Below, one piece after another: positions 7,724 through 41,305 of a stretch of DNA of 64,000 bases (its first letter is position 1; every line of letters begins with the position of its first letter). This DNA comes from a virus. Made by a program: the position numbers and the translations under genes. The DNA is taken from positions 41,688-105,687 of IMG/VR virus record IMGVR_UViG_3300009448_000011; one strand, given 5' to 3'. The notes below the pieces were generated by a model. The model searched no databases and was not told the origin of the DNA. It saw only the letters and a program-made list of their open reading frames with translations.

Positions 7724-9219
7724 AAAAGGTTAATATTTTCTTTACCATATATAGTAGTAGCAATTTGAATTCTATTTTGGGATTGATTTTTAAACCAAAA
7801 CTGAGTATCTATAAAATCAATAACAGTAGGAAATTGTTTGCCGTCTTTCTTACGTAATAAACGGCCGACGCGTTGTATAAAATCATTACTAGATTTACCT
7901 GCGGCGGCCAAAATAATACTAGAAAGACTAGGAATATTGATACCTGCAGTAAGAACTTTAGGACCAGCAATAACGCCATTTATTTTACTATCCTTTAAAT
8001 CTTGAATAATAAGTTCTCTTTTTTTCTTAGAAAGATAGCCACTAATAATAGGAAAATTCAAACCATGTTGTGATAAGAGAGAAGAAATAATATCAGCATG
8101 ATTGCCATCGCCTTTAACTTTATTAACAATAATAATAATAGGACCTTGTTTCTTATTAACTTCTTCAATTGCTTTAGTAACAATAATATGATTACGACCT
8201 GAATTATTTATAATTAAATTATTATAAACAAGAGGTAAAATTTTATATCTATGAGAGTCAGAAAGAGTACTAATATTAGCGGCATTTTTTTGCAAAGAAG
8301 TAGGTAAAAACCCTTTAGGAGAAGTATAGAAATAAAATTTAGGTTGCATTATAATATTTTGTTGTATTAAATCCAGTTCAGAGATAGTACAAATACGAGA
8401 ACCAAAAAAGGCTTCTAAAAAGAGAGAGTGAGGGCCAACAATGTCGGGAGTAGCAGAAAAAGCCAAAGAAATGCGGCGATTAGTTAAGTGTTCAATTAAA
8501 GATTGAAAAGTAGGATTACAAGTTAAATGACATTCATCAGTCAACAAAACATCGACAGAATTTAAATAAGATTTTGATTTAGATAAATTAGATAAAGAAT
8601 TAGGAATACCGACAGTGACATCATTAAAGATATAATGTCCATCGCCGACAATACCGATATTAATTAAAGGAGAATGAGAGAGAGAAAAATAGTCATTAAT
8701 ATCGTGAGTCATTTGATATAACAAATTAATAGTAGGAACTGTAATTAATACTTTCAAATGATCTTGAGTAAATATTTTAACTAATTCGCCGATACAGAAA
8801 CTTTTCCCAGAACTAGTAGGAGATTTTACAATGCCGCGTTTAAATTGTAAACAAGAGGTTACAATTTGTTTTTGGTGAGGACGTAAGATAGAGCTAAGAG
8901 AGAGAGAGTGAGGAATATATTTAGGAATAGTAGAAACAATTTCCAAATCAGAGCGTGAAATAACGGTATTATCGTCCCAAATATCTGTTAAGAGTCTAGA
9001 AATAAAACCTGAGTACAAAAAAACATCCCAAGTATTATTATTATTTTTAGTAGCTTTAAAGAGATATTTTTTAGTAGCGGCAAGAGTCAAACAATTAGGA
9101 CTAAAAAGAGATAGAGTAGCTTCATCAATAAAGTGTACTAATTCTTTAGATAAATACTCTACATACTCTCGGGGACATTCTTTCAATATAGAATATGTAG
9201 GTGAATATTTTATTTTCAT
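7720..9219 (-). CDS. SF2 DExH helicase (UvsW-like)
   Basis: LRPHQ, SPTSSGKS, DECH, SATP, GINIPSL, QRVGRLLR. Confidence 0.9.
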   Translation of the reverse strand: MKIKYSPTYSILKECPREYVEYLSKELVHFIDEATLSLFSPNCLTLAATKKYLFKATKNNNNTWDVFLYSGFISRLLTDIWDDNTVISRSDLEIVSTIPKYIPHSLSLSSILRPHQKQIVTSCLQFKRGIVKSPTSSGKSFCIGELVKIFTQDHLKVLITVPTINLLYQMTHDINDYFSLSHSPLINIGIVGDGHYIFNDVTVGIPNSLSNLSKSKSYLNSVDVLLTDECHLTCNPTFQSLIEHLTNRRISLAFSATPDIVGPHSLFLEAFFGSRICTISELDLIQQNIIMQPKFYFYTSPKGFLPTSLQKNAANISTLSDSHRYKILPLVYNNLIINNSGRNHIIVTKAIEEVNKKQGPIIIIVNKVKGDGNHADIISSLLSQHGLNFPIISGYLSKKKRELIIQDLKDSKINGVIAGPKVLTAGINIPSLSSIILAAAGKSSNDFIQRVGRLLRKKDGKQFPTVIDFIDTQFWFKNQSQNRIQIATTIYGKENINLL

Positions 9220-9362
9220 ATGACATATTTAATCTTTTTAAATACCAGTTAATATATTTTAACACAATTTTTATTTTACCTAAAACATATTAACTAGTTA
9301 ATTTAAAAAAAATAAATTAAAGAGGGAGAGAGAGAGAAGTTAAGGAAGAATAATATATTTAA

Positions 9363-10616
9363 TTAAAAAGGCATACTATCGAGATCATAATCAGAAGGCT
9401 GAGAGATAGTACGAATAGAAGGAGAAGGAGAAGGAGAAGGAGAGGAAGGGACATTAATAGTACCATCGACTTGAATAGAAGTAGAAGGTTCAAGAGTTAA
9501 AGATTCAATAGTAGGAGAAGGAACTTCAACGGACCAAGATTTAAAAGCACGAGAATACTCAGGAATAAAAACTGCGCCGAGACTTCCAAAATGAGCTTGA
9601 AAGAGAGGAGAAGGGCCAGGGCTTTTGCGATAAGTCAAAGAAAGATAGTGAAATACAGGATTACGGAGGGGATCACGAGAATTTTTAAATTGGAAATGTA
9701 AGTCGCGACAATAAGATTCAAAACCAACGACAGAAAGATCAGGATCTCTTTTACCATTAGAGGATTTAATAGAGCGACCTTGAATATTAGTTTTACTTAA
9801 AGGAACTTCCATAAAAACAAATTCGCCAATATTGTTGCCATTAAGATCTAAAAGAGAAGAAACAGGATAGCTAACATTAGACATAACATAAGAAGATTTG
9901 CCATTAGCATCAGTTGTTTTAACATTTTTACGAACAAGGACTTCAAAAACAGCGAGATAAAGTTTGCCACGAGGGTCGCAAGAAATACGTTTATCAGAAC
10001 CACCGTCACCAATACCGGGAATAACTTCAGTAGAGAAGCCACATTTAATACAATCAGAACAACTAGTAGTTTTTTCGCCTCTATAACCGACTAAGCCCAA
10101 TTTTTCCACAGAAGGATTAGGTTTAGTATTATTAACAGACCATTTATTAGTAGACATATCCTTTTCAAAAGCATACTTCATACCATAAGGAACAGTAGGA
10201 AGAGCTTTAATTAATTGACCTTTCTCTGTATAGCCAAGAACAGAACAAAGAACATTTGTTTTTTCACCATCAAAATATCTTAATTCATCACGTTGTTGAT
10301 AGAGCATTACAGCGCCACGAAGTTCAATTACATTACCTAATTCAATAGGCTCACCACCTTCTTCTTTAGGAGGTAGAAATAGATATTCACTTTCTCTAAT
10401 AGAGGGATTACCATCATTATGTAAAGAAGTCCATTTAATAACACCATCAGATTTATGTGTATCAAAAACACTTCTAATTTTTTTAGGACGAGAATAAGAA
10501 GTAGATTTTTTACTACCACCTCCTGAATAAAAATCAGAAGAACTATCCAAGTTAATATTTAATTCTTCCGCCAATAACAATAAATCATTATTATTTGTTT
10601 TAATTAAATCCGACAT
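9363..10616 (-). CDS. Putative ssDNA-binding or annealing protein
   Basis: Lies in the replication cluster; Pro/Ser linker and acidic-aromatic C-terminus DYDLDSMPF. Confidence 0.4.
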   Translation of the reverse strand: MSDLIKTNNNDLLLLAEELNINLDSSSDFYSGGGSKKSTSYSRPKKIRSVFDTHKSDGVIKWTSLHNDGNPSIRESEYLFLPPKEEGGEPIELGNVIELRGAVMLYQQRDELRYFDGEKTNVLCSVLGYTEKGQLIKALPTVPYGMKYAFEKDMSTNKWSVNNTKPNPSVEKLGLVGYRGEKTTSCSDCIKCGFSTEVIPGIGDGGSDKRISCDPRGKLYLAVFEVLVRKNVKTTDANGKSSYVMSNVSYPVSSLLDLNGNNIGEFVFMEVPLSKTNIQGRSIKSSNGKRDPDLSVVGFESYCRDLHFQFKNSRDPLRNPVFHYLSLTYRKSPGPSPLFQAHFGSLGAVFIPEYSRAFKSWSVEVPSPTIESLTLEPSTSIQVDGTINVPSSPSPSPSPSIRTISQPSDYDLDSMPF

Positions 10617-16093: not shown

Positions 16094-16123
16094 TTGACAT
16101 ACTAAGTTATGGTATGTTATACT
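16094..16123 (+). promoter_or_regulatory. Sigma70-type promoter of cassette copy 1
   Basis: TTGACA-18 nt-TATACT with extended -10 TG. Confidence 0.7.
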
Positions 16124-16147
16124 TTAAAAAAGGAAAAAGAGAATAGA

Positions 16148-16732
16148 ATGAATTTAGAAACTTGTCAAAACTTAAGCTTGATAATAGAAAAAGACCAAAC
16201 AATTGAAGTAATTGAAATTTGGGCAAAAGTATTATATATAAGAAGAAGCAAAGGAAGAAATTCATTTTATTCGAAGAAAGGAATAACAAAAGAAACAGAA
16301 GGAATATTTTGTAATAACTTAAAAGTTTCAGAAAATTATAAAAGCCTTTTTAAAAAATACCACCCCGATTTAAACAAAGGAAAAGAAAGTTATGTTGACA
16401 TTTCAAAAAACATTAATAGATGGAAAAACTTATTACTTGAGAGTGGACAAAGAGAGTTTGATCAACAATTATATACAGAGCTTATTGAGTTTTGTGGACC
16501 ACTCACATCCATTTTCACTATTGGAACCAGAGCAAGTTTTATCGCAAAACAAACGTGCGGATCTATCAACATCCCTCAATTTAGTTCTGAACAGGAATTT
16601 GTTGAGTGGAAAGCAGCGCCAAAGCAAGTTGCTTCCAGGCAAGCGTTCCTTGATAGCCAACTTACTAGAGCTCAAATCATCAAAAAGTACGGTAAATCCT
16701 ACTATGATTATGAAAGAGATCTTCCTTTTTAA
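16148..16732 (+). CDS. Cassette ORF-A copy 1 (IEIW domain, partial J-domain, PF tail)
   Basis: MNLETCQNL aligns with the other copies; YKSLFKKYHPDLNKG; ends ERDLPF. Confidence 0.75.
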   Translation: MNLETCQNLSLIIEKDQTIEVIEIWAKVLYIRRSKGRNSFYSKKGITKETEGIFCNNLKVSENYKSLFKKYHPDLNKGKESYVDISKNINRWKNLLLESGQREFDQQLYTELIEFCGPLTSIFTIGTRASFIAKQTCGSINIPQFSSEQEFVEWKAAPKQVASRQAFLDSQLTRAQIIKKYGKSYYDYERDLPF

Positions 16733-17138
16733 TCCTGACCAGGACACTATAATACGTCCTTACGGATTAGAAAAAAATCAAATGTATAGTAATTATATGC
16801 CAACGGGCAAAGAAAGCAAAAATTATTTAAGGAGTTACATTAATAAAGCAGAATCTTTAGGGATCAAAGTCAAAGCTTTCAATTTTAACATTTGCGGTCC
16901 TGTTGTCACACAAGAAGCTATTGAATTCGCCAATTACATGAATATTGCAATTAAAGAATTAAATGGAGTGAAAATACAAATCAATGTATTCACTTTGGAA
17001 CAATTAATCAAAGAATTAATGACAAATATAAATGGAAACAAATGGTTCATCACTTCGCAAGTTCCAAGTATATGCTGGGGAAAAGATCAGGTACAATATT
17101 TAATTTCAGAAAAAAAAGCTATATTAACAGAAAGTTAA
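16392..17138 (+). CDS. Cassette ORF-B copy 1, PD-(D/E)XK endonuclease (free-standing)
   Basis: E...EPEQ..KRADL...LLELK; homologous to the three other copies. Confidence 0.7.
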   Translation: MLTFQKTLIDGKTYYLRVDKESLINNYIQSLLSFVDHSHPFSLLEPEQVLSQNKRADLSTSLNLVLNRNLLSGKQRQSKLLPGKRSLIANLLELKSSKSTVNPTMIMKEIFLFNPDQDTIIRPYGLEKNQMYSNYMPTGKESKNYLRSYINKAESLGIKVKAFNFNICGPVVTQEAIEFANYMNIAIKELNGVKIQINVFTLEQLIKELMTNINGNKWFITSQVPSICWGKDQVQYLISEKKAILTES

Positions 17139-17751: not shown

Positions 17752-19306
17752 TTACCTAAAATAGCAGAATGCCCCCATCAGAACGGTACTCCGTTTGGTG
17801 GCGGGATGAATGCGAGTGAGGCGACGATTGCCTGTCCTCCTTCCGAGATCTACCGATTGTCGGGATTGTCGGACAGGCATAAGGAGACGAACAAATTCAT
17901 TGCTTATTCAATGTTTTATCTGAGTTTTTCTGGATAAAATTATGCTATCATAGTTTCATGATAGTTAGAGAAGCCAAGCTAAAATACGGTACAGCAGAGC
18001 AATATTCTGCCATTGATAAAGCCATCCGAACAGCACAGTTCATTCGGAACAAAGCCGTTCGCTATTGGATGGACAATCAAGGTACGAGTAAAGCCGATCT
18101 GTACAGTATCTGCAAAGACTTGGCTAAAGAGTTTGACTTTGCTAAAAAGCTTAACTCCGCTGCTCGTCAGGCTAGTGCTGAACGTGCTTGGGTTGCTATC
18201 TCTAGCTTCTACACCCGATGCAAAAAGCGGCTCACTCCAGTTGGGTCTCCCAACCATGGAAGTAAGACAAAACAAGGCGTAGGCAAGAAAGGTTTTCCAA
18301 AGTTTAAGAAACATTGTCGTTCTGTTGAGTATAAGGTTTCAGGATGGAAACTATCGAAAGATTGCAAATCGATCGCATTCACTGATGGTTTTGAGATTGG
18401 AACATTATCGATATTTTGCAACAATGAAACTCAAGAAGACTTGCATAGGCTGAAAATTAATCGTGTGCGGATCGTGCGGAGAGCAGACGGGTATTATGCC
18501 CAATTCTGTTTTGATGCAGATCGTAAAGAGCAAGGGGAATATTCAGGCAATGTTGTCGGATTGGATTTAGGGTTGAAGTTTTTCACCAAAGACCAAAACG
18601 ATAATGCTGTAATATATCCACAGTTCTTGAGAAAGGCCCAGATGCAACTCAAGAAAACTCAACGTCGATTAAGCAAGAAATTTGTGAAGGGTGCCAAACC
18701 CCAATCAAACAACTACCACAAGGCGCAAAAACAACTAGGAAGAATTCATCTCAAAATTCAACGCCAGCGAAAAGATTGGGCGATAAAAGCCGCCCGAAAC
18801 GTAGTGATATCTAACGATGTCGTGGTGTATGAAAATTTGAAGATTGCGAACATGGTCAAAAATCATCATTTGGCTAAGTCAATTTCCGATGCTGGTTGGT
18901 ATCAATACACTCAATGGCTGGACTACTATGGCAAGATTTGGGATAAAGCAGTTGTGGCAGTATCGCCAAACTATACGTCTCAAGATTGCTCTAATTGCGG
19001 TCATCGAGTGAAAAAGTCTCTTAGTACCAGAACGCACTCATGCCCCAACTGCAAAATTGAAATTTGTCGCGATACGAATGCGGCTTTGAATATCTTGCAC
19101 AAGGGATTGAACATTCTTGGTGTTGAGTGGGACAAAAACAGTACTTCTGGGCAAGAAGGATCTGCCTCTGAGAATGAGGGAAAGCGCGGGGAGAGATGTA
19201 CCTCTACAGTCGATGAGTAATTAAAGACTGCAAGTAATTCTCTGTGAACCGCGAATAAGAATCCCCCGCTATATCGGTACTTCGATTAGCGGCGGGAGTA
19301 TGTCAA
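17752..19306 (+). mobile_element. IS200/IS605-family tnpB-only element (IS1341-like)
   Basis: Preceded by TTGAT and ends in TCAA; related subterminal hairpins at about 17772-17805 and 19263-19296; GC visibly higher than the flanks. Confidence 0.85.
17958..19220 (+). CDS. tnpB: RNA-guided endonuclease TnpB
   Basis: RuvC motifs GLDLGL, VVYENL and RDTNAA; zinc finger CSNCG..CPNC; GFPKFKK. Confidence 0.93.
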   Translation: MIVREAKLKYGTAEQYSAIDKAIRTAQFIRNKAVRYWMDNQGTSKADLYSICKDLAKEFDFAKKLNSAARQASAERAWVAISSFYTRCKKRLTPVGSPNHGSKTKQGVGKKGFPKFKKHCRSVEYKVSGWKLSKDCKSIAFTDGFEIGTLSIFCNNETQEDLHRLKINRVRIVRRADGYYAQFCFDADRKEQGEYSGNVVGLDLGLKFFTKDQNDNAVIYPQFLRKAQMQLKKTQRRLSKKFVKGAKPQSNNYHKAQKQLGRIHLKIQRQRKDWAIKAARNVVISNDVVVYENLKIANMVKNHHLAKSISDAGWYQYTQWLDYYGKIWDKAVVAVSPNYTSQDCSNCGHRVKKSLSTRTHSCPNCKIEICRDTNAALNILHKGLNILGVEWDKNSTSGQEGSASENEGKRGERCTSTVDE

Positions 19307-19349
19307 AAAAAGTCAATGAAAAAAGTAAAAAAATTAATAGTTAAAAAAA

Positions 19350-19772
19350 TTAATAGTTAAAAATATCTATAGTTGTATTATTGTTAGTTCGTTTAAAGAT
19401 ATAACTATTATTTTGATAGAGGGTGTATTCTTTTAATTGAATACCAGGAGTGATCAAGTCATAATCAAAAGCAACAATAGCATAGCCAGTGCCATCATTA
19501 ATAGTCCAGGTTATATAGAACTTACTTTTCAAATATTGATCATAGCTAGTATCCATGTCGTAGTAGATACCGTAGGGGGTAGTATTTTCCAGGTAAATTT
19601 GGCTAGAAGAAGTAGCACAATAATTCGATTCTGTCAAACCCAACCACATATTATCGGGAGAACAAGTATTTTGAGAATTTGGCTCGGTTAATTGAAGTTC
19701 TGCAGAGGCAGAAGAACCGCTGATCAAAATACTTAAAATAACTACAATGCCGATTTTCAAATTATTAAACAT
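19350..19772 (-). CDS. Secreted hypothetical protein
   Basis: N-terminal signal-peptide-like segment. Confidence 0.55.
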   Translation of the reverse strand: MFNNLKIGIVVILSILISGSSASAELQLTEPNSQNTCSPDNMWLGLTESNYCATSSSQIYLENTTPYGIYYDMDTSYDQYLKSKFYITWTINDGTGYAIVAFDYDLITPGIQLKEYTLYQNNSYIFKRTNNNTTIDIFNY

Positions 19773-19900
19773 TATTTTTTTTATAGTAAATAGTGAATAT
19801 TAAATAAATTACATATTTTCAATTAAAGCAGCAAAATGTCCTCCTTCGGACTAGTATTCCAGTTAAAGGAGGGTAAGGAAGTAATGTTAACAATTTTTTT

Positions 19901-20503
19901 TCATTTAGCGGCCCAACTAGTACCCAATTTACATTCTGCTTTAGAAGGAAAATCAGGCACTAATTTATGTAATAATTCATCCATTGCTTTTTTCATTCCT
20001 AATTCTTGTGCAGCAGCATATTCATAAGAAATATCTTGAAATTTATATTCAGGAATATAAACTTCCCCATCTTTTCTTACATTTACTACTTCACCTTGTC
20101 CAGGGATATAAGTAATACATTCATCATGAACTAAGCCTACGATATAGCCTGGAGAAGAATGTTGTTTATACTTAGTATTAAGCTGAGTAAAAAACTGATC
20201 GATATAATGTGCGGCGCGTTTTGTCATAATACTAGAAAGGCCTTGTATAATGGTATTACAACCTTTACGCATAGTAGCGCCATCATTTTCTATTCCGTGA
20301 GCATTACCTTCGCCAACGAAATAGCGTCTATTTGTTATAGGACATTGTACCCATTTTTGATATCTAGCCAAAGAACTAGTATTATCAATATAGACTTGCA
20401 ATTCTGGAAATAAATTAAAATAGTTTTTAAGAAGTTGTTCAGCAACCTTAATATCTATTTGAAGAGCGGTAGAAATTCTATTAGCACTTCCACCATAAAT
20501 TAC
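19901..20503 (-). CDS. polA: PolA polymerase subunit, exon 3
   Basis: VIYGG, NTIIQG and motif C VHDE; the exon begins after the intron's terminal G at 20504. Confidence 0.9.
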   Translation of the reverse strand, partial: VIYGGSANRISTALQIDIKVAEQLLKNYFNLFPELQVYIDNTSSLARYQKWVQCPITNRRYFVGEGNAHGIENDGATMRKGCNTIIQGLSSIMTKRAAHYIDQFFTQLNTKYKQHSSPGYIVGLVHDECITYIPGQGEVVNVRKDGEVYIPEYKFQDISYEYAAAQELGMKKAMDELLHKLVPDFPSKAECKLGTSWAAK

Positions 20504-20556
20504 CTTAAACCCTAAATTTTCATCTAGGTTTGGACTATACCTTTTAATGTAATTAT

Positions 20557-20586
20557 TTGACATACATTAAAACACCGTGTTATAAT
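20557..20586 (+). promoter_or_regulatory. Sigma70-type promoter of cassette copy 2
   Basis: TTGACA-18 nt-TATAAT with extended -10 TG. Confidence 0.8.
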
Positions 20587-20613
20587 TAGTATAACAAAGA
20601 AACATTTTAGATA

Positions 20614-21192
20614 ATGGACATACAAACAGCGGCGAATTTACAAGAATTAATAGAACAAGATCCTTTAATAGAATTAATCGAAATATGGGATAAAGTTTTA
20701 TACATAAGAAAAGTAAAAGGCCGAGGAAGGTTTCATACTAAAAAAAATATTACTTTGTTAAAAAGTGGAATATACATCAATACAAAATATATACTCCAAG
20801 AATACAAAAGACTTCAAAAAAAATATCACCCTGATTTAAACAAAGGAAAAAAAAATTATGTTGAAATTTCAAAAAGCATTAATCAATGGAAAGACTTATT
20901 ATTTGAATGTGACGAAAGAGAACTCAATAGAACAGTATATCAGTTACTTATTACAACATGTGGACCGCTCACATCCATTTTCAGCATTGGAAAATCAGCA
21001 GACTTTATTTGGGGGCAAGAGGCCGGATTTCTCCACATCCCTAGATTTAATTCTGAACAGGAATTCAAGGAATGGAAAATTCCCTTTAGGAATTGGGCGG
21101 AAAAACTCGATGATTGCCGATTGCCTAGAAGTAAAAGGAAGTTCTCAGATGTTGAGCACTACGGAGTTAATGAAAGAGATCTTCCTTTTTGA
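20614..21192 (+). CDS. Cassette ORF-A copy 2
   Basis: IEIWDKVLYIRK, YKRLQKKYHPDLNKG; ends ERDLPF. Confidence 0.75.
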   Translation: MDIQTAANLQELIEQDPLIELIEIWDKVLYIRKVKGRGRFHTKKNITLLKSGIYINTKYILQEYKRLQKKYHPDLNKGKKNYVEISKSINQWKDLLFECDERELNRTVYQLLITTCGPLTSIFSIGKSADFIWGQEAGFLHIPRFNSEQEFKEWKIPFRNWAEKLDDCRLPRSKRKFSDVEHYGVNERDLPF

Positions 21193-21589
21193 TGCAGCAG
21201 AAACTATTGTTCCTACTTATGATGTTTCTATGTCTGATTTTCAATCTCAATATTTTCCATTGGGGAAAGAAAGCAAGAATTATTTCAGAAGTTATGTGCA
21301 GGAAGCACTTAATAGAGGCATCAAAGTGAAATCATTTACTTTTTGGTTTGCGGGCCCTCTAGTGTCTATTGAAGCCATCAAATTTTCTATTTATTGGAAT
21401 CGCGTGATCAAACAAATAGGTGGAATTCAAGTAGAAATCAAAGTTTTGTCTTTGGAACAATTAATTAATTACATCATTTCCAATATTCCAACAAAAAAAT
21501 GGTATGTATTAAATCAACATCCTTCTGTTTGTATGAGTAGAGCGCAGGTTGAAGCTCTAATAGAAGCTCAACTAGCCATTTTAGTATAA
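20858..21589 (+). CDS. Cassette ORF-B copy 2, PD-(D/E)XK endonuclease
   Basis: LENQ..KRPDFS...CLEVK. Confidence 0.75.
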   Translation: MLKFQKALINGKTYYLNVTKENSIEQYISYLLQHVDRSHPFSALENQQTLFGGKRPDFSTSLDLILNRNSRNGKFPLGIGRKNSMIADCLEVKGSSQMLSTTELMKEIFLFDAAETIVPTYDVSMSDFQSQYFPLGKESKNYFRSYVQEALNRGIKVKSFTFWFAGPLVSIEAIKFSIYWNRVIKQIGGIQVEIKVLSLEQLINYIISNIPTKKWYVLNQHPSVCMSRAQVEALIEAQLAILV

Positions 21590-21616
21590 TCTTTTAATAT
21601 CTAATTATCTTTAAGT

Positions 21617-21649
21617 CGCCTTGTACATTAATGTATTTAGGCGTTTTTT
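21617..21649 (+). terminator. Intrinsic terminator of cassette copy 2
   Basis: cgcct...aggcg hairpin followed by T6. Confidence 0.7.
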
Positions 21650-21787
21650 ATTATGTATTCTTAAAAGTCTCTGAACCATTTTATAAACTTTCATTTATAG
21701 CTGGCTGCTGATTGACATATAGTATTTTTTAAACTACTTAGTGTTCCAGCAATTGAGTGTTTTTTACTTCACCATAATTTACAATTT

Positions 21788-22051
21788 AGTGAAGCCGCAG
21801 ACTTTACCACGGTCTCTTCTTGTCCATCCATTCATATCTTTTTTAGCTTCTTTAATAACATTCCATTTAGGAACAGTAGCTAATTCAGGGTACATTCCAA
21901 TAGCCGAAACTACATGAAGATCCCCGTCAGGATTAGGATATGTTTCTTTTGTATGTGGATTAATAAGAAAGGGATTATGCACTTCGGCATCGAAAAACGC
22001 ATTAATCATTCTCTCTATTTTTGCTATACAAGCAATAGCTCTTACTTCTTG
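21788..22051 (-). CDS. polA: PolA polymerase subunit, exon 2
   Basis: QEVRAIA...GDLH...RDRGKVCGFT. Confidence 0.9.
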
Positions 22052-22271
22052 CAATATAGTTTTATTCTATACTGGCACTACTCTTCACCATCTCTATTAA
22101 GTACAGGTGTTTTACGTCAGTGCTCTACTCTTGCCCAATTAATATAATAGAATAATAGTTCTAATTAATTTGCTAGATCGGGATTAGTTTACTATCACTT
22201 TCCCCGAATTGGTAAAATATTTTTTATACTATTTCTAATATAAACGACCCTTTTTTATTGTATTTATTTGT

Positions 22272-22300
22272 TTGACATTCAGCCATATAAGAGATACAAT
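22272..22300 (+). promoter_or_regulatory. Sigma70-type promoter of cassette copy 3
   Basis: TTGACA-17 nt-TACAAT. Confidence 0.8.
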
Positions 22301-22327
22301 AAAAAAAAGACAAAAAACAAATAAGGT

Positions 22328-22900
22328 ATGGATGCTCAAACTTGTAGAAACCTACAAACATTAATTGATAAAGATAATAATATTGAACTCATAGAAATAT
22401 GGGCCAAGGTACTTTATCTAAGAATGAAAAAAGGAAAAAACAAGTTTTGCAGTAAAAAAGGAATAACTAATTTAAGCTCAGGAATTTATTTAAACTTAAC
22501 TAACTTTAAAAATGAATACACAAAATTGCAACGAAAATATCACCCAGACAAAAATGCAAAACATTTTGAAATTTCAAAAGGTATTAATCAATGGAAAGCA
22601 TTTATATTTGAATGTGACAAACGAGAACTTAATAGAACAGAACTTAATACATTACTTGAATCATGTCCCCCCAACACATCCTTATTCTCTCTTAGAGAAC
22701 CAGCAAGTTATTTACAACAACAAGAGACCGGACTTTTCAACCACCTTGACGACATTGCCAGGCACTATTGGGCCACTGTTACGCCTAAGCAAAGAGCTGA
22801 GGCAGAAGCTAGGGAAGAAGAATGGCTTGCTCGTCGATGTGGTAGAAACAAAGATGGAAGTAAATACGTCGACCCTTATGAAGGAACTTGTCCCTTTTAA
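22328..22900 (+). CDS. Cassette ORF-A copy 3
   Basis: IEIWAKVLYLRMKKG, LQRKYHPDKN; ends YEGTCPF. Confidence 0.75.
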   Translation: MDAQTCRNLQTLIDKDNNIELIEIWAKVLYLRMKKGKNKFCSKKGITNLSSGIYLNLTNFKNEYTKLQRKYHPDKNAKHFEISKGINQWKAFIFECDKRELNRTELNTLLESCPPNTSLFSLREPASYLQQQETGLFNHLDDIARHYWATVTPKQRAEAEAREEEWLARRCGRNKDGSKYVDPYEGTCPF

Positions 22901-23300
22901 AGAAGATGCACAACAATTTGTTGATTCATCTTTTAGAAAGGAACAATTTACTTTTAATGCAGAACGCGTTGTCAATTATAAATGTTACATAAGCAATTAT
23001 GTGAAAGCTGTTCAACAAAAAAAAGGTAAAGTAAAACAAATTACTTTTGCTTTTGTAGCTCCAAAAATAACAGTAGATGCATATGAATTGGCGTGGATTT
23101 TAACACATAGTCCAATTTACAATAATATTGGTGGCGTTAAAATCATAGTAGAATTATATACATTAGAAGCTTTTATCGAAAAACTGATTAATATAATCCC
23201 AGCCAATAAATGGTTCATTAAAAGTTCAATTCCTTTTAATTGTGTAAATGGGAGAGATGTAGATCTTCTAGTTAAAGAAAATAGAGCTATTATTATTTAA
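22512..23300 (+). CDS. Cassette ORF-B copy 3, PD-(D/E)XK endonuclease
   Basis: LENQ..KRPDFS...VVETK. Confidence 0.75.
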   Translation: MNTQNCNENITQTKMQNILKFQKVLINGKHLYLNVTNENLIEQNLIHYLNHVPPTHPYSLLENQQVIYNNKRPDFSTTLTTLPGTIGPLLRLSKELRQKLGKKNGLLVDVVETKMEVNTSTLMKELVPFKEDAQQFVDSSFRKEQFTFNAERVVNYKCYISNYVKAVQQKKGKVKQITFAFVAPKITVDAYELAWILTHSPIYNNIGGVKIIVELYTLEAFIEKLINIIPANKWFIKSSIPFNCVNGRDVDLLVKENRAIII

Positions 23301-23326
23301 TTTATTTATTTTTTATCTTTAGTAAT

Positions 23327-23356
23327 AAACTCAGTATATAGGTGTATACTGAGTTT
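23327..23356 (+). terminator. Probable terminator hairpin of cassette copy 3
   Basis: aaactcagtata/tatactgagttt inverted repeat followed by T-rich sequence. Confidence 0.6.
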
Positions 23357-23373
23357 CAATTTATATTTAGTTA

Positions 23374-23460
23374 AGCCGAGTAATCACTAATACCCACACA
23401 CATACCTTTAGGCGCCGCACCTAAAGCTTTTCTTACCGTTGTTGTAATTTCATATGACAT
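23374..23460 (-). CDS. polA: PolA polymerase subunit, exon 1 (29 codons, missing from the ORF track)
   Basis: MSYEITTTVRKALGAAPKGMCVGISDYSA; the spliced product is 29+88+200 = 317 aa. Confidence 0.85.
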
Positions 23461-23522
23461 ATTTAATTTTAAATTTGGTTTAATTAATGAAAAAGAATAA
23501 ATAGCAATAGAATTAAAATATT

Positions 23523-23876
23523 TTAAACAATATTATGTTTCAACAAAACAAGAATGATTTGTTTAATAATATCGCCATGACAATCATTAGGTTTGCACCA
23601 ACAAGCAAGTTTAAAATCTACCCCTTTTTTTTCTAATTGAGCTAAGCGAATCAATTCATCATAAACAGAGCCTTTTTTCAAAGAATACATTTGAAGAATC
23701 CAGGCCTTATAGAGCTGTAGACTTTCTGCAAGAGTTCTATTATGTCTAACTGCATAAGGATTATTTAAAGGGCTAGCTTTTAAATTGTAATAAGCATTTT
23801 TACGGCCAATGTAGATAATATCTTCGCCAACAAATCCGTCTTTTTTCCCATTGATAATGTGCATAGAGTTGTTCAA
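23523..23876 (-). CDS. DUF4326-like protein
   Basis: IYIGR..SPLNNPY...LACWCKPNDCHGDII. Confidence 0.8.
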   Translation of the reverse strand: MNNSMHIINGKKDGFVGEDIIYIGRKNAYYNLKASPLNNPYAVRHNRTLAESLQLYKAWILQMYSLKKGSVYDELIRLAQLEKKGVDFKLACWCKPNDCHGDIIKQIILVLLKHNIV

Positions 23877-23883
23877 TTAAATA

Positions 23884-25173
23884 TCAAAATTGATGTTGAT
23901 CAATAGAAATAACAGCAAGAGTAGAAGAAACTTGTTGTAAATTAGCAGAGCCACTAGAACTCATGCGACCTGTACTAGAACCTATAGAAGAAAAACCGAC
24001 ATGTACGTTATTAGTAGTACTATTAATAATAGAGTTATACTTCAAACATTCAGACCAAAGTTTACTATATTTTTTATAACGTAACAAATTTTTAATTAAA
24101 TTAATATGACTATATTTAGAAATCAAATAATTCTCATCAAATAAAGGTTCTTTTTCTTCATCAAGGGCTTCTTGTTTTAGTAGATCAAGATATAATTTTA
24201 TTTCATCTGCTTGCAAGCTAGATAAAGAAGCGCCGCCTAATTTAGTCAAATAATCATTAATAAAAGAAACTAAGCCCTTATTATTATTAAGTAAAGTTTT
24301 GACTTTATCAGGAATAACATACTTAAGTTCCCAATGACCTTGAGCATTAAGATCAGTATCAGTATAGATAGTAAAACCTAATTCATGTACTAAATAAGAT
24401 CTATGAAGATTAGTTTGTTCTTCGGCATAAGAAGTAATCTTAGCTAATAGAGAAGTATCGAGACACATGCCGTAATATTCCATTTTTGCACAAATAACAG
24501 TAGCTTGCTGATCTGATTCGTATGCAAATTGTTGATGAAGAAGATCAAGTTGAGTTTTAAATAAATAATAACCTTCAATTAATATAGAATTAATAGAAGA
24601 AAGTTTAGGAGCGCCAACATCTAAAGCGGCATAACCTAATTGGCTAGTAGTTAAAGGTCGTTCACCCCAAGAACTAGTAGCTTCACTTTTATCGAGATGG
24701 ATATCAAAATAATCCCTTGCTAAATCTTTAAGACCATGGCCTCTAAATATAGAAGCTTTCATTCCTGTAGTAATGGCCAAACTTTTCATTAAAGTCAAAG
24801 AACAAACAGTATTAACGGGCCAGGATTTAAACTCGTTATAAAATTGTTTTAAATCAAATTGACTATAGTGAAGTATTTTTAATATATTTTCATTAAGCAA
24901 TACTTTTGTATTAAATAAAGATTTAGCAGAAGAACTCAATAATATAAAATCTAAAATATAAGGAATAGAATGATTTATACTATTTAATTGAACTAAAGAT
25001 ATTTTAGAACTATGAGGATCCAAAGCACTAGGATTTACTTTAGATAAATCAATCATAGTTTCAGTATCCAGTGCAATTTCCTTACTTTCTACACAAAAAT
25101 CAATTATTGCCTCTATATCTTTATCTTCTGTTACATAATAAATATCAATTTCCGCTGTTTCTATTAATTTCAT
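23884..25173 (-). CDS. polA: PolA N-terminal subunit (3'-5' exonuclease and thumb)
   Basis: ALDTET, FDLK, YAALDV, TGRMSS..NLQQ; the ORF stops before motif A. Confidence 0.88.
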   Translation of the reverse strand: MKLIETAEIDIYYVTEDKDIEAIIDFCVESKEIALDTETMIDLSKVNPSALDPHSSKISLVQLNSINHSIPYILDFILLSSSAKSLFNTKVLLNENILKILHYSQFDLKQFYNEFKSWPVNTVCSLTLMKSLAITTGMKASIFRGHGLKDLARDYFDIHLDKSEATSSWGERPLTTSQLGYAALDVGAPKLSSINSILIEGYYLFKTQLDLLHQQFAYESDQQATVICAKMEYYGMCLDTSLLAKITSYAEEQTNLHRSYLVHELGFTIYTDTDLNAQGHWELKYVIPDKVKTLLNNNKGLVSFINDYLTKLGGASLSSLQADEIKLYLDLLKQEALDEEKEPLFDENYLISKYSHINLIKNLLRYKKYSKLWSECLKYNSIINSTTNNVHVGFSSIGSSTGRMSSSGSANLQQVSSTLAVISIDQHQF

Positions 25174-25235
25174 ATTAAAAAAAATATATAATTCTAATTA
25201 AATATTTAATTAGAGTATATAATATAGAATTAGGA

Positions 25236-25679
25236 TTAAGAAGACAAAGTAGAAATATCTTGTTTCAAAGATTCTATTTCAGAAGAAACAGCTAAAGAAT
25301 TAAAATCAAATTCAACAGAAGAAGAAAGGTCAGGATTAGGGGAAGAATCTTGTTGAAGTTGTTGAGAGACATAAGAATCTGCATCAAAAACAGAAAAGCC
25401 AGAAGATTGATCTAGAGAATTGGGGGCAACTCTAGGAATAGAGGGGGCCTCAGTAGAAATAGTGACTTGATTTTTGTCAGTATAACGAGGTTGAAAAGGA
25501 GAATCATTAGAGGAAGAAAGAGAAGAGTTGCGAGAATATAAAGAAGATGTAGAGCTTTTAACTGCTTCTGCGGCGGTATTTAAGATACAATCAATTTGAT
25601 ATGTTTTCTCTATTAATTCTTTCCGAGCAGCAACTAATTCTGAAACAGACATAGTTTTATAAGATTTCTTTTTTATCAT
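25236..25679 (-). CDS. Hypothetical Ser-rich protein
   Basis: ORF between recA and polA. Confidence 0.5.
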   Translation of the reverse strand: MIKKKSYKTMSVSELVAARKELIEKTYQIDCILNTAAEAVKSSTSSLYSRNSSLSSSNDSPFQPRYTDKNQVTISTEAPSIPRVAPNSLDQSSGFSVFDADSYVSQQLQQDSSPNPDLSSSVEFDFNSLAVSSEIESLKQDISTLSS

Positions 25680-25684
25680 AGGAT

Positions 25685-26779
25685 TTAAGAAAGATTTAGA
25701 ATAGAATTTAATTGAAGTTGGAGATCGAGATAAGAGTCGGGATGTTCCAAATAATAGTCGTAAACTTTTTGAAGACCTGCGACTTTTTTATCTAAATGAG
25801 GAACATAGAACCAAGCACCGTGTTGTTGAATAATATTTGCATCAAGAGATAAATTAACGGTATCAGCAAAAACATCAACACCTGCTATTATAGTATCATT
25901 TCGTTTAATAGGAAAAATAAAAGGAATTTCCACTTTTTTAAAGGGGGTAGAGGTTTTATTTTTAACAGCTTGAATAGAAACAATTTGACCTATTTTTTCT
26001 TTAGCGTCTTCAAGCCAACTAACACGATTTAAATCTAATCTAACAGAACAATAATAGTGAACAGCTCTACCTCCACAAGTAGTAGATTTAGAACCATAAC
26101 CAAGAAGATTCTGACCACGTTCTTGATTAAGTAAGATAATAGAAATATTACGTTCAGCAGCAAGAGTAACTAATTGTTTAAGAGCATTACTCATTAAGCG
26201 TGCTAAAGAACCAATCATAGTAGTACCCATTTCTTTTTTTTCATCTAGATCGCCACTAGGAACAAGAGCTGCTACAGAATCAAGAACAATTAAATTTAGT
26301 ACAGGATTACCAGCACTATCTTGTAATTTTATACCTGTTCGTATAGCCTCTAGAGCTTCTTCTGCAGAATTAGGTGCAAAGGTACAAAGTTTATCTAAAT
26401 TAACGCCACAATATATCATAAAGTCAGGATCTATAGCATGTTCAGCATCGACCCACATACAAAGTTTGTTTTGTTTTTGATAACTAGAAACAATATGGGA
26501 AGCCAAAGTACTTTTACCAACACTAGTATCTCCAAAAATCTCTATAATTCTGCCTACGGGGAGACCGCCGCCCAAAACGTTATTTAAACTTAAACAATCT
26601 AATTTAACTCTACCGACGCTTTCAAATTTATTTTTATTACGAAATCCAGCATATTGAGTACCAAACTTTTTACTAAGAGTTTTATCAAATAATTCTAAAG
26701 ATTCAAAGTCAGTTTCAGGTAGATCAGTTTCAAGTAGATCAGTTTCAAGTAGATCAGTTTCAGGTAGATTTTTTTTCAT
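25685..26779 (-). CDS. recA: RecA recombinase
   Basis: GGLPVGRIIEIFGDTSVGKST, DAEHA, DSVAAL, ARLMS, KNK; N-terminal ETDL(L/P) repeats. Confidence 0.93.
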   Translation of the reverse strand: MKKNLPETDLLETDLLETDLPETDFESLELFDKTLSKKFGTQYAGFRNKNKFESVGRVKLDCLSLNNVLGGGLPVGRIIEIFGDTSVGKSTLASHIVSSYQKQNKLCMWVDAEHAIDPDFMIYCGVNLDKLCTFAPNSAEEALEAIRTGIKLQDSAGNPVLNLIVLDSVAALVPSGDLDEKKEMGTTMIGSLARLMSNALKQLVTLAAERNISIILLNQERGQNLLGYGSKSTTCGGRAVHYYCSVRLDLNRVSWLEDAKEKIGQIVSIQAVKNKTSTPFKKVEIPFIFPIKRNDTIIAGVDVFADTVNLSLDANIIQQHGAWFYVPHLDKKVAGLQKVYDYYLEHPDSYLDLQLQLNSILNLS

Positions 26780-35912: not shown

Positions 35913-38285
35913 TTAAGTTTTAATAATATATAGTGCTTTACCGGCAGTTTTAGGAACTTCCACTGTTGTATTAATGACCCACAATAAATTAGTATTTTTA
36001 ATTTGGGAAGCAGTAGGAAAAACACAATAACCATCTGAAGCAATAATGCTTAAAATAGGGGTATATTTTTTAATACCGTAAAGTAGAGGAGTTACCATAT
36101 CAGTGCCCCCACCACCTTCAGCGCGAATCCACCCGTTTTTAATTTTATCTAAAAAGTTAGCGCCATCAGCTTTAACAATATATTCACTACGAACTTTTGT
36201 ATCTGCAAAAATCAAAGCAATTTCTACATTAGTTTGTGTTTGAACATTTTGTATTTCTGTACAAAACATAGTTAATTCTTCTTCATTAAAACAAGAACCA
36301 CTAGTATCTATTATTACTAACATTTTATCTAGACCCTTTTTATTTAAAAGACCAGGCATATAAACATTAGGGTTAGGTAAAGAGCCCATTCTTCTTGCAG
36401 GTTTACTCCACGTTTGTTCTAAAACAGGCATACACCTTTTAATTAAATATTTACGTAATTCTACATGCCAAGAAATTTGAGGTTTATAAACATCAGGATT
36501 AACTTTACCTAATATAGAATTGTTAGAATTAAGTGATTGAGCTTTAGCCCTATTATATCTTTGTGTCCATTGAAAATCATCTATTTGTGAAGAAGTAGAA
36601 TCTTCTTTATTGGCTTCTTTTATATCATCGCCTGCAAATAATGTATGTTTGCTTGCTAATTTTTTAGATAATTCTTCTACTTCTTTTTCTAATTTTTCTA
36701 ATACACTTTCTTCATTATTAGAAGAATCAGGAGGTTTTTTACTATTATTAGCCTTGCCCCCTTTTTTTTTATTTTGGGACTTTGACTGATTTTCTACTTG
36801 TTTTTGTAAATTATCTCGTAATGTTTTAATTAAATATTCATATAAACTTTCTGAGGTCCAGTGACTAAAATGTTTTCTTTCACTTTGCGCAATATTACAC
36901 TCAGAATATATACTCTCTAAATTAACTACTTCTTTTTTATTTAAATATAAATAGGAGGGTGATCCTACTTTTTGTTCATCTTTAAATCCAATACTTTCAT
37001 TTATAATTGCATCACAATTATGAGTCACTACATTACTTGCAAGATATATGTGCGTTTCAGTTTCAATGTTATACACTAATCCTTCATAATATTGCTTAGA
37101 AATATGTTTAATAGGAGTTAATATATAATCCTTAGTAGTTTTCCATATTTGACTATTATTTACATTTCTAGAAGATTTAGTAGTTTTAATATATGACAGT
37201 AAATAGCCACTTTCTACATAATCAATAGTTAAAAATTTATTATGTTTTGCAAATAATAATTGTAATTGTCTAGCTAATAAATTTGAAGATGTCCACGCAG
37301 TTAATTTATTTTTATTTCGGTGCCCTTCCCCATCAAAATAACCTTTAATAAAACTAGCAGTTAAATTATTAGGTAAATCTAAAAGCCAATTCGGCAATTC
37401 TGTTTTTTCTTTTATTAAAATTGAATTACAAATAGATACAATATAATAATAGTAGGAAAGAAAAGTAGAAGAAATTAAGGCTAAAGAATTAAAATAAGAT
37501 GAGATTCGATTATTTGGAATTAAATCAAAAGAACCTTTAGCCAGAAAATAGCCTATGGAATATAATAAATCATTTGTAAGGAGAAAGTTAGAAGGAAAAG
37601 GAGGGAGAATAGGAGGAATTAAAGAAGAATGAAGTTTAGGGATACATAAATAATCTTGAGTAATATTTAACTCTTGTGCTGTTTTCCAACTATAATTAAT
37701 TTGGTTATTAGAGTTAAAGTTAGCAACGTAAAAAGGATGATCTTGGGTAGCTTCAATATTCAAACAACCAGTGGGTTTAATAGTATACATATCATCTTGA
37801 TATATATTTTCCATAGTGTTTGTAATAGTGCCGCCAACTAAAGTGGTATCGCCTATGATTAAATCTTCTATATTCTTGAAACCTTCTAAGGTAAGAATAG
37901 GTTCTCCTGGTTTAAAACAAGCAATATTATATAAATTGCTAATTCTTTTTTTACCACGTATACAATGTCTAAATACAATATGAAGCATTTCATGAATAAT
38001 AACTGCACATTGTACAGGAATTTCTAATGAAAAAAATCTATCAGCAAAAAACATTTCATCGCCATTAGTATAAGCCACCTGTTCAAAATAAGGGTGAGAA
38101 TCAGGGACTACAGAACTAGGAACAAAAGTCAATAAGCCTTGTAGAGAATTATCTTCACATATAATACGAGCTCTTAAATTATGTAAAATCCTAATTTTTT
38201 TATCATAAGAAATATTAGAAGGAGGAAAACTATCTGCTAATTTTTCATCAGACATAGAAAATAAAGAAGTTTCAATCATAGTCAA
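35913..38285 (-). CDS. DUF2201-type metallopeptidase-like/VWA protein with intein
   Basis: AYTNG, HEMLH, NIA|CDAIIN, DTSGS, GGGGTD. Confidence 0.85.
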   Translation of the reverse strand: MTMIETSLFSMSDEKLADSFPPSNISYDKKIRILHNLRARIICEDNSLQGLLTFVPSSVVPDSHPYFEQVAYTNGDEMFFADRFFSLEIPVQCAVIIHEMLHIVFRHCIRGKKRISNLYNIACFKPGEPILTLEGFKNIEDLIIGDTTLVGGTITNTMENIYQDDMYTIKPTGCLNIEATQDHPFYVANFNSNNQINYSWKTAQELNITQDYLCIPKLHSSLIPPILPPFPSNFLLTNDLLYSIGYFLAKGSFDLIPNNRISSYFNSLALISSTFLSYYYYIVSICNSILIKEKTELPNWLLDLPNNLTASFIKGYFDGEGHRNKNKLTAWTSSNLLARQLQLLFAKHNKFLTIDYVESGYLLSYIKTTKSSRNVNNSQIWKTTKDYILTPIKHISKQYYEGLVYNIETETHIYLASNVVTHNCDAIINESIGFKDEQKVGSPSYLYLNKKEVVNLESIYSECNIAQSERKHFSHWTSESLYEYLIKTLRDNLQKQVENQSKSQNKKKGGKANNSKKPPDSSNNEESVLEKLEKEVEELSKKLASKHTLFAGDDIKEANKEDSTSSQIDDFQWTQRYNRAKAQSLNSNNSILGKVNPDVYKPQISWHVELRKYLIKRCMPVLEQTWSKPARRMGSLPNPNVYMPGLLNKKGLDKMLVIIDTSGSCFNEEELTMFCTEIQNVQTQTNVEIALIFADTKVRSEYIVKADGANFLDKIKNGWIRAEGGGGTDMVTPLLYGIKKYTPILSIIASDGYCVFPTASQIKNTNLLWVINTTVEVPKTAGKALYIIKT
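37017..37919 (-). mobile_element. Intein (301 aa) with LAGLIDADG-like domain
   Basis: Starts CFKPG, has ATQDHPF and FIKGYFDGEG, ends VVTHN|C. Confidence 0.9.
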
Positions 38286-38715: not shown

Positions 38716-39507
38716 TTAAACAGATATTAAATCACTAAAAGCTTGCATATGTTCTTTGCGCATTGCTTTATATGCCTCAGACTTACCAATTTTGTAGGGT
38801 AGTTTTTTATTATCTATTTTTTGTGCTTTACTAAATAGAGTAATCACACTTGTCACTAAAATTTCTTTACGAGGTAAATTATCTTCAATACTTCCTAATA
38901 CATTAAATACATAACATGCCGCTATAAATTCTTCTTCTGTTTTACAATACGACGGTAATGAATAACTTAATCCATATAAACCAGTTATTTTAGTAGGAAG
39001 AATATTTTTAATTAAGCGATCATCTTGGAGGACACCTAGACGAATATATTCAGACATAGGGGCAAGGCTAGCTAATTCTTCAATAACAAAAAAGAATTCA
39101 TGAGCAGTAGCGGCGCCTAAAAGACCTGGTAAAATAATTTTTAATTGTTGTTCATCAGTAATTTTCTCCATAATATTGGAACATTTTTCCCATGAACGGC
39201 TAGAAGGATTAATTTTATCATCATTATCTGCGACTGATTTAAAACCTTCGTCAAGAAATTCAGGACGAGCTCTTAAAAAAGCTTTAATAGAAGGAATAAT
39301 AGGGCGGCCGTTTTCTGCGCGATGGGCTTCCCATTTTAACCAAGCATTTACAGAAGTCATTACGTCAAAATGAATAAAACGATCTGAGATAGCACTAGAT
39401 AACTCATAGGCTATAGCACCATCTTCTACTCTATTTCCTGCTGCAATAATCATTACATTATCAGGAACTTTATATTTATCAATTTTTCTATCTAATATTA
39501 ATTCGTA
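38716..39507 (-). CDS. MoxR-like AAA+ ATPase, exon 2
   Basis: YELILDR, IAAGNR, DRF, SSRSWE. Confidence 0.88.
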   Translation of the reverse strand, partial: YELILDRKIDKYKVPDNVMIIAAGNRVEDGAIAYELSSAISDRFIHFDVMTSVNAWLKWEAHRAENGRPIIPSIKAFLRARPEFLDEGFKSVADNDDKINPSSRSWEKCSNIMEKITDEQQLKIILPGLLGAATAHEFFFVIEELASLAPMSEYIRLGVLQDDRLIKNILPTKITGLYGLSYSLPSYCKTEEEFIAACYVFNVLGSIEDNLPRKEILVTSVITLFSKAQKIDNKKLPYKIGKSEAYKAMRKEHMQAFSDLISV

Positions 39508-39752
39508 CATTAATATACCTTTAATTTTCATTAAAGAACGGAATACATTTTAATCTTTACTATATTTATATAGTATTAAGACTTGGACACTCTAGGTAAA
39601 ATTATAGTCTGTTTAACTTAAGACATCATTTACTACTCTCTACATTATTATTAAACATTACTTTAATAATTAACACGGGATTACCTTATAGTTTCCTACT
39701 TAGGTTTCCCCGTTAGCCTAATCTCTATTTGTTCTTTTTTGATTAAACCCTA

Positions 39753-39781
39753 TTGACTTATTAAAACCAATACATTATAAT
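39753..39781 (+). promoter_or_regulatory. Sigma70-type promoter of cassette copy 4
   Basis: TTGACT-17 nt-TATAAT. Confidence 0.8.
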
Positions 39782-39820
39782 ATATTTAAATACACACACA
39801 TTTACAAATAAGAAATTCAA

Positions 39821-40814: not shown

Positions 40815-40832
40815 TCATATTCATTTTTATTT

Positions 40833-40876
40833 AAATCTCTCTTATTGTGTTATTGCTTTAAGAGAGATTTTTATTT
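40833..40876 (+). terminator. Terminator hairpin of cassette copy 4
   Basis: aaatctctctta/taagagagattt followed by a T-rich tail. Confidence 0.65.
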
Positions 40877-40939
40877 GGTACGCAATAGTTTGCCCAGTTT
40901 TACTTATATATTTCTATATAAGGTGCCTACGAATATTTA

Positions 40940-41305
40940 AGCACTTGCTTGTAAACGCGGTTCAGCCGCACTTAATTCATCTAGAAAAATAATACAACCT
41001 TCTTTACCCCAACTAGCAATCATTTCTTCTGTTGGTAAAAATTCAGGTAAATAATAAATAGTTTTTTTACTTTCTTGATGTAGATAAGGAAGTCCTGTTA
41101 AATCAGTACTATCCATTCTAGTAAGTCTTAAATCAATTAGCCCCCAATTTAATTCTGTAGCTATTTGTCTTACAATATCAGATTTACCACAACCAGGTTG
41201 TCCATGTATATATACAGCATTTTTACGTAAGTCTGTATCTTTTGCCATTGTTAAAATACAATTTTTAATTAAATCAGGCGTAGTGGGAATAGTATTAATT
41301 GTCAT
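40940..41305 (-). CDS. MoxR-like AAA+ ATPase, exon 1
   Basis: Walker A GQPGCGKS, DLTGLP, Walker B IFLDEL; the spliced product is 385 aa. Confidence 0.88.

Follow-up and report, generated by a model that had tools for sequence, protein, structure and literature searches.

A two-gene family A DNA polymerase in a cyanophage-like virus, with probable group I introns at motifs A and B of the catalytic gene

A 64,000-nucleotide (nt) stretch of viral DNA (here called the window; bases 41688 to 105687 of one IMG/VR virus record, IMGVR_UViG_3300009448_000011, of 105,687 bp) carries a family A DNA polymerase (PolA) in two separate genes. In all probability this is a two-subunit PolA of the type found in the cultured Microcystis phage Ma-LMM01, with two group I introns in the catalytic gene, one at motif A and one at motif B, each bearing an antisense, probable homing cassette. 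The virus is uncultured and cyanophage-like, and its nearest cultured relatives by polymerase sequence are the Microcystis phages of the Ma-LMM01 group, at approximately 30% identity. The record is about 62% complete (CheckV), the guanine-plus-cytosine (G+C) content of the window is about 29%, and the DNA of the record was present in one sequencing run only, a groundwater metagenome that may be its source.

In the model that we favor, the product of the first gene would run from the exonuclease domain into the polymerase domain as far as the sequence TGR..NLQQ, and the second gene would supply the rest, with motif A, motif B in the fingers, and motif C. The precursor RNA of the second gene would splice itself twice to give a catalytic subunit of 317 amino acids (aa), which would then join the 429-aa N-terminal subunit noncovalently, and the nuclease encoded by the cassettes would cut intron-less polymerase alleles, so that the introns spread by homing. 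Gene callers name the N-terminal half "exonuclease" and miss the first, 29-codon exon of the catalytic half entirely.

The break between the two polymerase genes

The N-terminal gene (N-half; Table 1) matched Pfam DNA_pol_A_exo1 at 77 bits, DNA_pol_A at 28.4 bits over profile positions 60 to 132 of 381, and PHROG 31382 ("3'-5' exonuclease") over its full length. Mapped on solved PolA structures, its end fell just past the motif equivalent to NLQNIP, at approximately position 356 of 605 in the Klenow chain and position 135 of 381 on the DNA_pol_A profile; thus, the cut lies inside the polymerase domain. Beyond NLQQV the protein continues for only 14 residues, a semiconserved tail, before the stop, and the C-terminal half (C-half) has about 8 residues ahead of its conserved sequence. 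The tail past NLQQ (23884-23930) has the consensus QQVSNTxVxIxxxxxxF in the split clade and ends in a hydrophobic residue in the closest relatives; it may be a docking strand for the C-half. When compared with solved structures, the N-half profile (23884-25173) matched the apicoplast Prex polymerases best (E = 2e-24) and bacterial Pol I less well.

The preliminary description of this DNA, made from the letters alone, had proposed that PolA is split into two genes and that the N-half open reading frame (ORF) ends just past TGRMSS..NLQQ and is followed by a DUF4326 gene. Both ORFs were recovered at the positions it gave, and the split itself proved to be widespread. Among 5.8 billion proteins searched, the N-half had 83 clear homologues, 67 of which were only 412 to 491 aa long; the 61 of these with a recognizable TGR motif ended a median of 29 residues past it. 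Two more homologues, of 744 and 745 aa, had the same N-half with an intein of approximately 300 aa in the exonuclease domain. The split form therefore accounted for 69 of the 83 relatives, including cultured Ma-LMM01, and every homologue with more than about 34% identity was of this type; the remaining 14 were unsplit, with lengths of 619 to 751 aa. In Ma-LMM01, the halves are annotated as gp180, a "3'-5' exonuclease" of 427 aa, and gp178, a "DNA polymerase" of 320 aa, and PHROGs holds a separate family for each half, with the last exon of our C-half falling in PHROG 35406, "DNA polymerase." The window shows both marks of this arrangement, namely, an N-half stop about 29 aa past TGR and a separate C-half ORF with its own start before motif A.

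The two halves were 2 to 5 kb apart in the three closest relatives (L017, L019, and L020; 51 to 68% identity), where genes for DUF4326, an RNA ligase, and a nucleotidyltransferase lie between them. Homologues of DUF4326 were found downstream of the N-half also in L017 and L020, and the gene is a conserved neighbor of the N-half in close relatives and no insertion peculiar to the present genome. Each C-half in the relatives starts with M-x-Y-x-x-TTTVRKALGAAP, and the start of our first exon, M(S/T/G)Y(E/K)(I/L)TTTVRKALGAAP, was also seen in the intron-less genes of L020 and L017. The unsplit relatives L010, L011, and Microcoleus phage My-WqHQDG have a linker of 20 to 30 residues across the position of the break. 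The two-gene state is thus old, conserved across the clade, and viable, and not a sign of damage, and we infer that the two halves form a heterodimer.

Because several genes separate the halves in L017, L019, and L020, a further cis-splice that would join them is excluded. More generally, the halves could be united by a third intron, RNA trans-splicing, or a split intein, an idea invited by their position next to each other on the same strand in this genome and by the frequency of inteins in the clade (before motif A in L011 and in the exonuclease domain in P0006 and P0013). Apart from the DUF4326 ORF, however, only about 70 nt of noncoding sequence lie between the halves here, every C-half has its own conserved ATG, and the relatives keep 2 to 5 kb and several genes in between. 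The preliminary description had noted the lack of split-intein motifs at the break. Pfam found neither an intein nor a Hint domain there, and the 14-aa N-terminal tail and the C-terminal head of about 8 aa contain no intein motifs. We give a joining of the halves a negligible probability. An origin of the split at an intein site was considered and rejected, since the intein of L011 lies directly before motif A, away from the break, and L011 is unsplit.

Exons and probable group I introns of the catalytic gene

The preliminary description had joined three exons into a 317-aa product with the junctions DYSA/QEVR and GFT/VIYGG, which lie inside motifs A and B, and this proposal was confirmed to the base. 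The joined product (29 + 88 + 200 codons) was identical at 220 of 317 positions (69%) to the uninterrupted gene L020:5799-6746 in a global alignment, with no gap at either junction (..GISDYSAQEVRAIACI.. and ..CGFTVIYGGSANRIS..), and it aligned in one piece to the unsplit PolAs P0067 and L011. These alignments are far above chance level and place the junctions correctly at codon resolution. All three family A motifs were present in the joined product, as DYSAQEVR (motif A; pattern DYSxxExR), RRDRGKVCGFTVIYG (motif B; RxxxKxxxFxxxYG), and LVHDE (motif C; HDE). Exon 3 matched Pfam DNA_pol_A at 64.8 bits (cutoff, 34.3) over profile positions 214 to 342. As ORFs, exon 2 opens with a TTG one codon upstream of its junction and exon 3 extends 20 codons back into intron 2. 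By a rule for group I introns, the last exon base is U and the last intron base is G. The first junction can be shifted by one base (gc/..t + g caa) without changing the protein, and only the unshifted version fits this rule.

The intact exons bear directly on the possibility that insertions of mobile elements have inactivated the catalytic half and that another polymerase replicates the genome. Two 1.3-kb insertions in catalytic motifs, a TnpB element just downstream, and the incompleteness of the record would fit such a history. However, the exons have neither a frameshift nor a stop, both insertions are codon-exact, the 69% identity to an intact homologue and motifs A, B, and C are preserved, and no match to PF00476 beyond the two halves was found in the 105.7-kb record. 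We therefore regard a dead gene as very unlikely.

The insert at motif A (intron 1) has ORF-less homologues at the same site. Of two near-identical IMG/VR phages, L002 and L007, the latter has an additional 507 nt at the same codon boundary (GAC TTC TCG AGT / CAA GAG), and this insert matched the full Rfam group I model (Intron_gpI) at 37.4 bits (E = 5e-8). L019, which is more closely related, has a 355-nt homologue without an ORF at the intron 1 site (L019:3609-3963). The 3' 200 nt of the three homologues showed 77% column identity, and the structure proposed for the family has 9 helices, with P3 and P7 crossing as a pseudoknot. In the alignment, 91.7% of cells were paired, compared with 36 to 43% when the partners were slid, a percentage that is inflated by the derivation of the structure from the window sequence, which leaves the compensatory changes in the other two sequences uninflated. 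In these three sequences, 23 of 50 pairs were changed on both sides, with P2, P3, P7, and P9 all covarying, and none of 500 shuffles reached any of the five measures. Helix P1 covaries with the exon as well: here the guide is GGUCG (22249-22245) opposite exon CGGCU, with a U.G pair at the splice site, whereas in L007 exon CGAGU is matched in a compensatory manner by the guide GCUCG. A search of IMG/VR with the 16-mer TAGAGATGGTGAAGAG gave 58 matches, among which the only true relatives were the already known contigs L007 and L008. Additionally, the long P1-loop region of the L007 intron (L007:9502-9697) matched HEARO RNA at 29.6 bits, below the gathering score of 83 (E = 2.6e-4).

The insert at motif B (intron 2) has a 7-bp P1, in which exon CUUCACU pairs with GGUGAAG (21773-21767) 13 nt into the intron, and the pair at the splice site is G.U. 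When a 216-nt stretch was searched, Rfam gave a local match to P4 to P6, J6/7, and the 5' strand of P7 (21751-21666) at 25.6 bits (E = 7e-5). J8/7 and the 3' strand of P7 read AAGGUAUAGUC (20543-20533), followed by a GAAA-capped P9 stem (20531-20507) and the terminal G. With its cassette swapped for a tetraloop, the intron folded into P1, P4 to P6, P8, and P9. The group I consensus strings present were GGGGAAA..AAUCCC in P4/P5, AGAGAC in J6/7-P7, and AAGAGAUGGUC and AAGGUAUAGUC in J8/7.

Both inserts are thus most likely group I introns, as judged from sequence and predicted structure, which agrees with the preliminary description: the structure, the covariation, the ORF-less homologues at the same codon, and the local Rfam matches all point the same way. 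Splicing would follow from this architecture. If the inserts stayed in the RNA, the catalytic half would be translated in three pieces (29, about 90, and about 220 aa), which would have to come together with the N-half, as happens with phage genes that free-standing endonuclease genes have broken up. Each fragment does lie in an ORF with a possible start (ATG 23460, TTG 22054, and ATG 20563), and both gene fragmentation by mobile nucleases and a split B-family polymerase are known in phages (PMC13648687). Such an assembly would, however, be broken inside motifs A and B and include a piece of only 29 aa; moreover, the 355-nt and 507-nt homologues encode no protein and keep the RNA structure, the exon ends fit the U and terminal-G rule, and the P1 pairing covaries with the exon. 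It has, in our estimate, only a very slight chance of being correct.

Removal by a route other than group I self-splicing, such as excision at the DNA level by the cassette proteins or the action of an undescribed class of ribozyme, was given a very low probability as well. The cassette proteins have only a predicted activity and belong to a very rare family, and no match reached the Rfam gathering score, both of which leave some room for this idea. On the other side stand the canonical group I topology and consensus strings, the U.G pair in P1, the terminal G, the covarying helices of intron 1, the full-model match of L007, and the local match of intron 2; the ORF-less homologues, for their part, encode no protein able to excise them.

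Several points weigh against a twice-spliced, two-subunit polymerase. The record is incomplete, and a second polymerase may lie outside it. No homologue of intron 2 was found, so its helices have no covariation support, and its P3 and P7 were assigned by eye. In intron 1, P1 has to form across approximately 1.1 kb. The strong antisense promoters of the cassettes lie within an essential gene and could disturb its mRNA. Finally, no insert reached the gathering score of 50 bits for Rfam RF00028, the best scores being those of L007 and intron 2, and group I scans were blank for window positions 19000 to 26000 (E ≤ 1), the whole record, the 3' core of intron 1, and the L019 intron alone. A scan of L017 to L020 gave no group I match either. 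The blanks seem to reflect insensitivity to AT-rich introns that carry inserts, because L007 and intron 2 match locally and because the same scans also missed an HNH-bearing insert of L019 in which the group I consensus strings can be recognized by eye. Scans of IMG/VR with single proteins found no relatives, and blastn searches of the region and the L019 intron against phage records gave no matches.

Table 1. Features of the polymerase region (positions in the window)
Feature	Position	Strand	Details
PolA N-half gene, 429 aa	23884..25173	-	ORF; 3'-5' exonuclease domain and start of the polymerase domain up to TGRMSS..NLQQ; ends in ..STGRMSSSGSANLQQVSSTLAVISIDQHQF, then stop
DUF4326 gene between the PolA halves	23523..23876	-	Pfam PF14216, 51.7 bits
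C-half exon 1, 29 codons	23374..23460	-	Own ATG; ends in DYSA inside motif A; ORF 23460..23371 ends in DYSA, then stop
Intron 1, 1322 nt, probable group I	22052..23373	-	DYSA/QEVR; exon end U, intron end G; ORF-less homologues; covariation
Intron 1 ribozyme core	22052..22250	-	P2, P3, P4-P5, P6, P7, P8, J8/7, and P9 with terminal G; guide GGGUCG 22250-22245; alignment of 3 homologues
Intron 1 cassette, in P1 loop	22272..23356	+	Promoter 22272-22300; ORF A 22328-22900; overlapping ORF B 22512-23300; hairpin 23327-23356
C-half exon 2, 88 codons	21788..22051	-	QEVR.. to ..RRDRGKVCGFT (first half of motif B); ORF 22054..21779
Intron 2, 1284 nt, probable group I	20504..21787	-	GFT/VIYGG; exon end U, intron end G; P1; local Rfam match; J8/7
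Intron 2 cassette, in P8 loop	20557..21649	+	Promoter 20557-20586; ORF A 20614-21192; overlapping ORF B 20858-21589; terminator hairpin 21617-21643, then U-run
C-half exon 3, 200 codons	19901..20503	-	VIYGG.. via motif C ..LVHDE.. to stop; ORF 20563..19901; Pfam DNA_pol_A

Antisense cassettes and other mobile elements

Each of the two introns carries, on the strand opposite to the ribozyme, a cassette with its own promoter and two overlapping ORFs, an element that the preliminary description did not include. The record contains four paralogous copies of the cassette, with 35 to 53% identity and all on the plus strand: the two in the PolA introns, one in an insert that splits an AAA ATPase gene, and one between genes (16109-17138). 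The two best sigma-70 promoter matches of the region (12/12 with TG for intron 2 and 11/12 for the other) lie directly upstream of the ORF A starts, and stable hairpins, one with a U-run, lie downstream of both ORF B stops.

The product of ORF A appears to be a J-domain-like protein. It matched Pfam DnaJ at 24.4 bits, under the cutoff of 27.8, all 35 of its profile matches in the PDB were J domains (best E = 2.5e-4), and its HPD motif was invariant across the four copies. ORF B had no sequence match in Pfam, PHROGs, or the PDB. Its structural model (pLDDT 88.7) had almost exclusively PD-(D/E)xK nucleases as structural neighbors, with Z scores of 5 to 7.8 and Foldseek E values of 0.016 or weaker; the top neighbors were AF1548, NucS, FokI, Can2, BspD6I, and EcoRII. 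Residues D57, E91, and K93 were invariant in the four copies. On the strength of the model, ORF B is a probable PD-(D/E)xK-type nuclease. The family is very rare, with 18 clusters among 1.84 billion representatives, and no relatives of ORF B were found in IMG/VR or GTDB genomes. About 110 codons are read in two frames at 20858-21192 and 22512-22900, where the C terminus of ORF A overlaps the N terminus of ORF B; the overprinted stretch includes the putative catalytic D..ExK of ORF B, and both translations are conserved among the four copies.

The other two copies lie outside the polymerase gene. An AAA/MoxR-like ATPase gene on the minus strand (38716-41305) is split after ..LDELSAAEPRLQASA by a 1.4-kb insert (41305..40937 / 39531..38716), which contains a cassette copy on the plus strand at 39821-40814; the 3' part of the insert gave a weak Rfam group I match to P4-P6 (16 bits; E = 0.086). 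The free-standing copy lies between a 390-aa ORF and a 157-aa ORF, apparently outside any intron, and the 390-aa ORF is possibly a clamp homologue, by synteny with Ma-LMM01 gp176. Since the cassette occurs in P1, in P8, in an apparent third intron in the ATPase gene, and once free-standing, it is seemingly mobile independently of the introns.

Most likely, the cassette is a homing endonuclease unit. A bolder proposal, in which we have slightly less than even confidence, is that it belongs to a type of homing unit that has not been described before: an antisense operon, autonomous through a consensus promoter and a terminator of its own, in which the J-domain-like ORF overprints the stretch of the PD-(D/E)xK nuclease that holds the catalytic residues. 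No antisense cassette for an endonuclease would then have been seen earlier in a phage group I intron. The cassette would move independently of the introns, and its transcription, head-on to the mRNA of an essential polymerase that is already in two pieces, may time or throttle the production of the polymerase.

Further mobile elements were seen at the polymerase genes of the clade. A second insert in L019 (4639-5442), right past the HD of motif C, has group I consensus strings by eye and an HNH-like ORF in the sense orientation; an ORF-bearing insert follows ..RRYFV in L017 (14159 onward); the LAGLIDADG intein directly before motif A of L011 lies at 9200-10400; and the inteins of P0006 and P0013 are at approximately residue 104 of the exonuclease domain. 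Introns and inteins are concentrated at motifs A, B, and C of the PolA of this clade, which emerge as a hot spot for both. Elsewhere in the window, a TnpB gene of the IS605 OrfB type (17958-19220; Pfam OrfB_IS605 and a Cas12f1-like TNB domain) forms an island of 42% G+C in the 29% G+C genome and sits between the PolA C-half and the usual downstream neighbor of that half. A gene for a DUF2201 metallopeptidase/VWA-like protein (35913-38285) contains an intein with a LAGLIDADG domain.

Precedents and significance

The closest counterpart of the two-gene polymerase is that of Ma-LMM01 (Fukuivirus), which has the same break just past TGR..(N)xQQ, subunits of 427 and 320 aa, and the same gene order, in a phage that is cultured and viable. 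At approximately 30% identity, however, the sequences are distant, and Ma-LMM01 has no introns and only a 51-aa ORF between its halves. We found no paper that discusses the Ma-LMM01-type split. In T7-like cyanophages of the S-SBP1 type, PolA likewise comes from two genes, and reassociation of the products has been predicted; this was called the first PolA split (Czernecki et al. 2023, PMC10201439). In that type, the exonuclease domain is on one chain and the polymerase domain is entire on the other, whereas here the polymerase domain itself is cut, so that both chains have to contribute to the active site. A split at the exonuclease/polymerase boundary was the only published PolA split that we found in the literature (PMC10201439). 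A working precedent for an intradomain split is the B-family polymerase of PhiKZ, whose two genes are split within the palm and whose products form a stable interdigitated heterodimer by cryo-electron microscopy (PMC13648687), although it belongs to another polymerase family and has no introns.

Self-splicing introns at the most conserved motifs of phage PolA genes, those of cyanophages included, have been described before. Group I introns in the PolA genes of SPO1 and Bastille are cited in PMC3984707, the polymerase gene of Pf-WMP3 has a group I intron with I-PfoP3I (PMC3428280), and Mic1 has a 298-bp "intron" in motif A (PMC7156551). Those introns carry an HNH or similar endonuclease on the sense strand or no ORF at all, in contrast to the self-promoted antisense cassettes with two ORFs found here. 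The Mic1 polymerase was also considered as a close relative and rejected, as it was absent from the polymerase homologue matches. An endonuclease gene on the strand opposite to the ribozyme is known from Didymium Dir.S956-2, a group I intron in nuclear ribosomal DNA (rDNA), and P1 and P8 are recorded insertion sites (PMC3679873); these, however, are eukaryotic rDNA introns with His-Cys box enzymes, and we found no phage or bacterial precedent for an antisense intron endonuclease in the literature. Thus, the split and the introns each have precedents in phage polymerase genes, while their combination has none, and what is new is the position of the split together with the doubly interrupted catalytic subunit and the antisense cassettes.

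These results point to a family A polymerase, cut within its polymerase domain, whose active site has to be put together from two polypeptides, an arrangement shared by at least 69 sequences and by cultured Microcystis phages. In the virus described here, the polymerase would be complete only after its RNA had been spliced twice and its two protein parts had come together, and the introns offer a natural setting for studying an antisense, self-promoted nuclease cassette.

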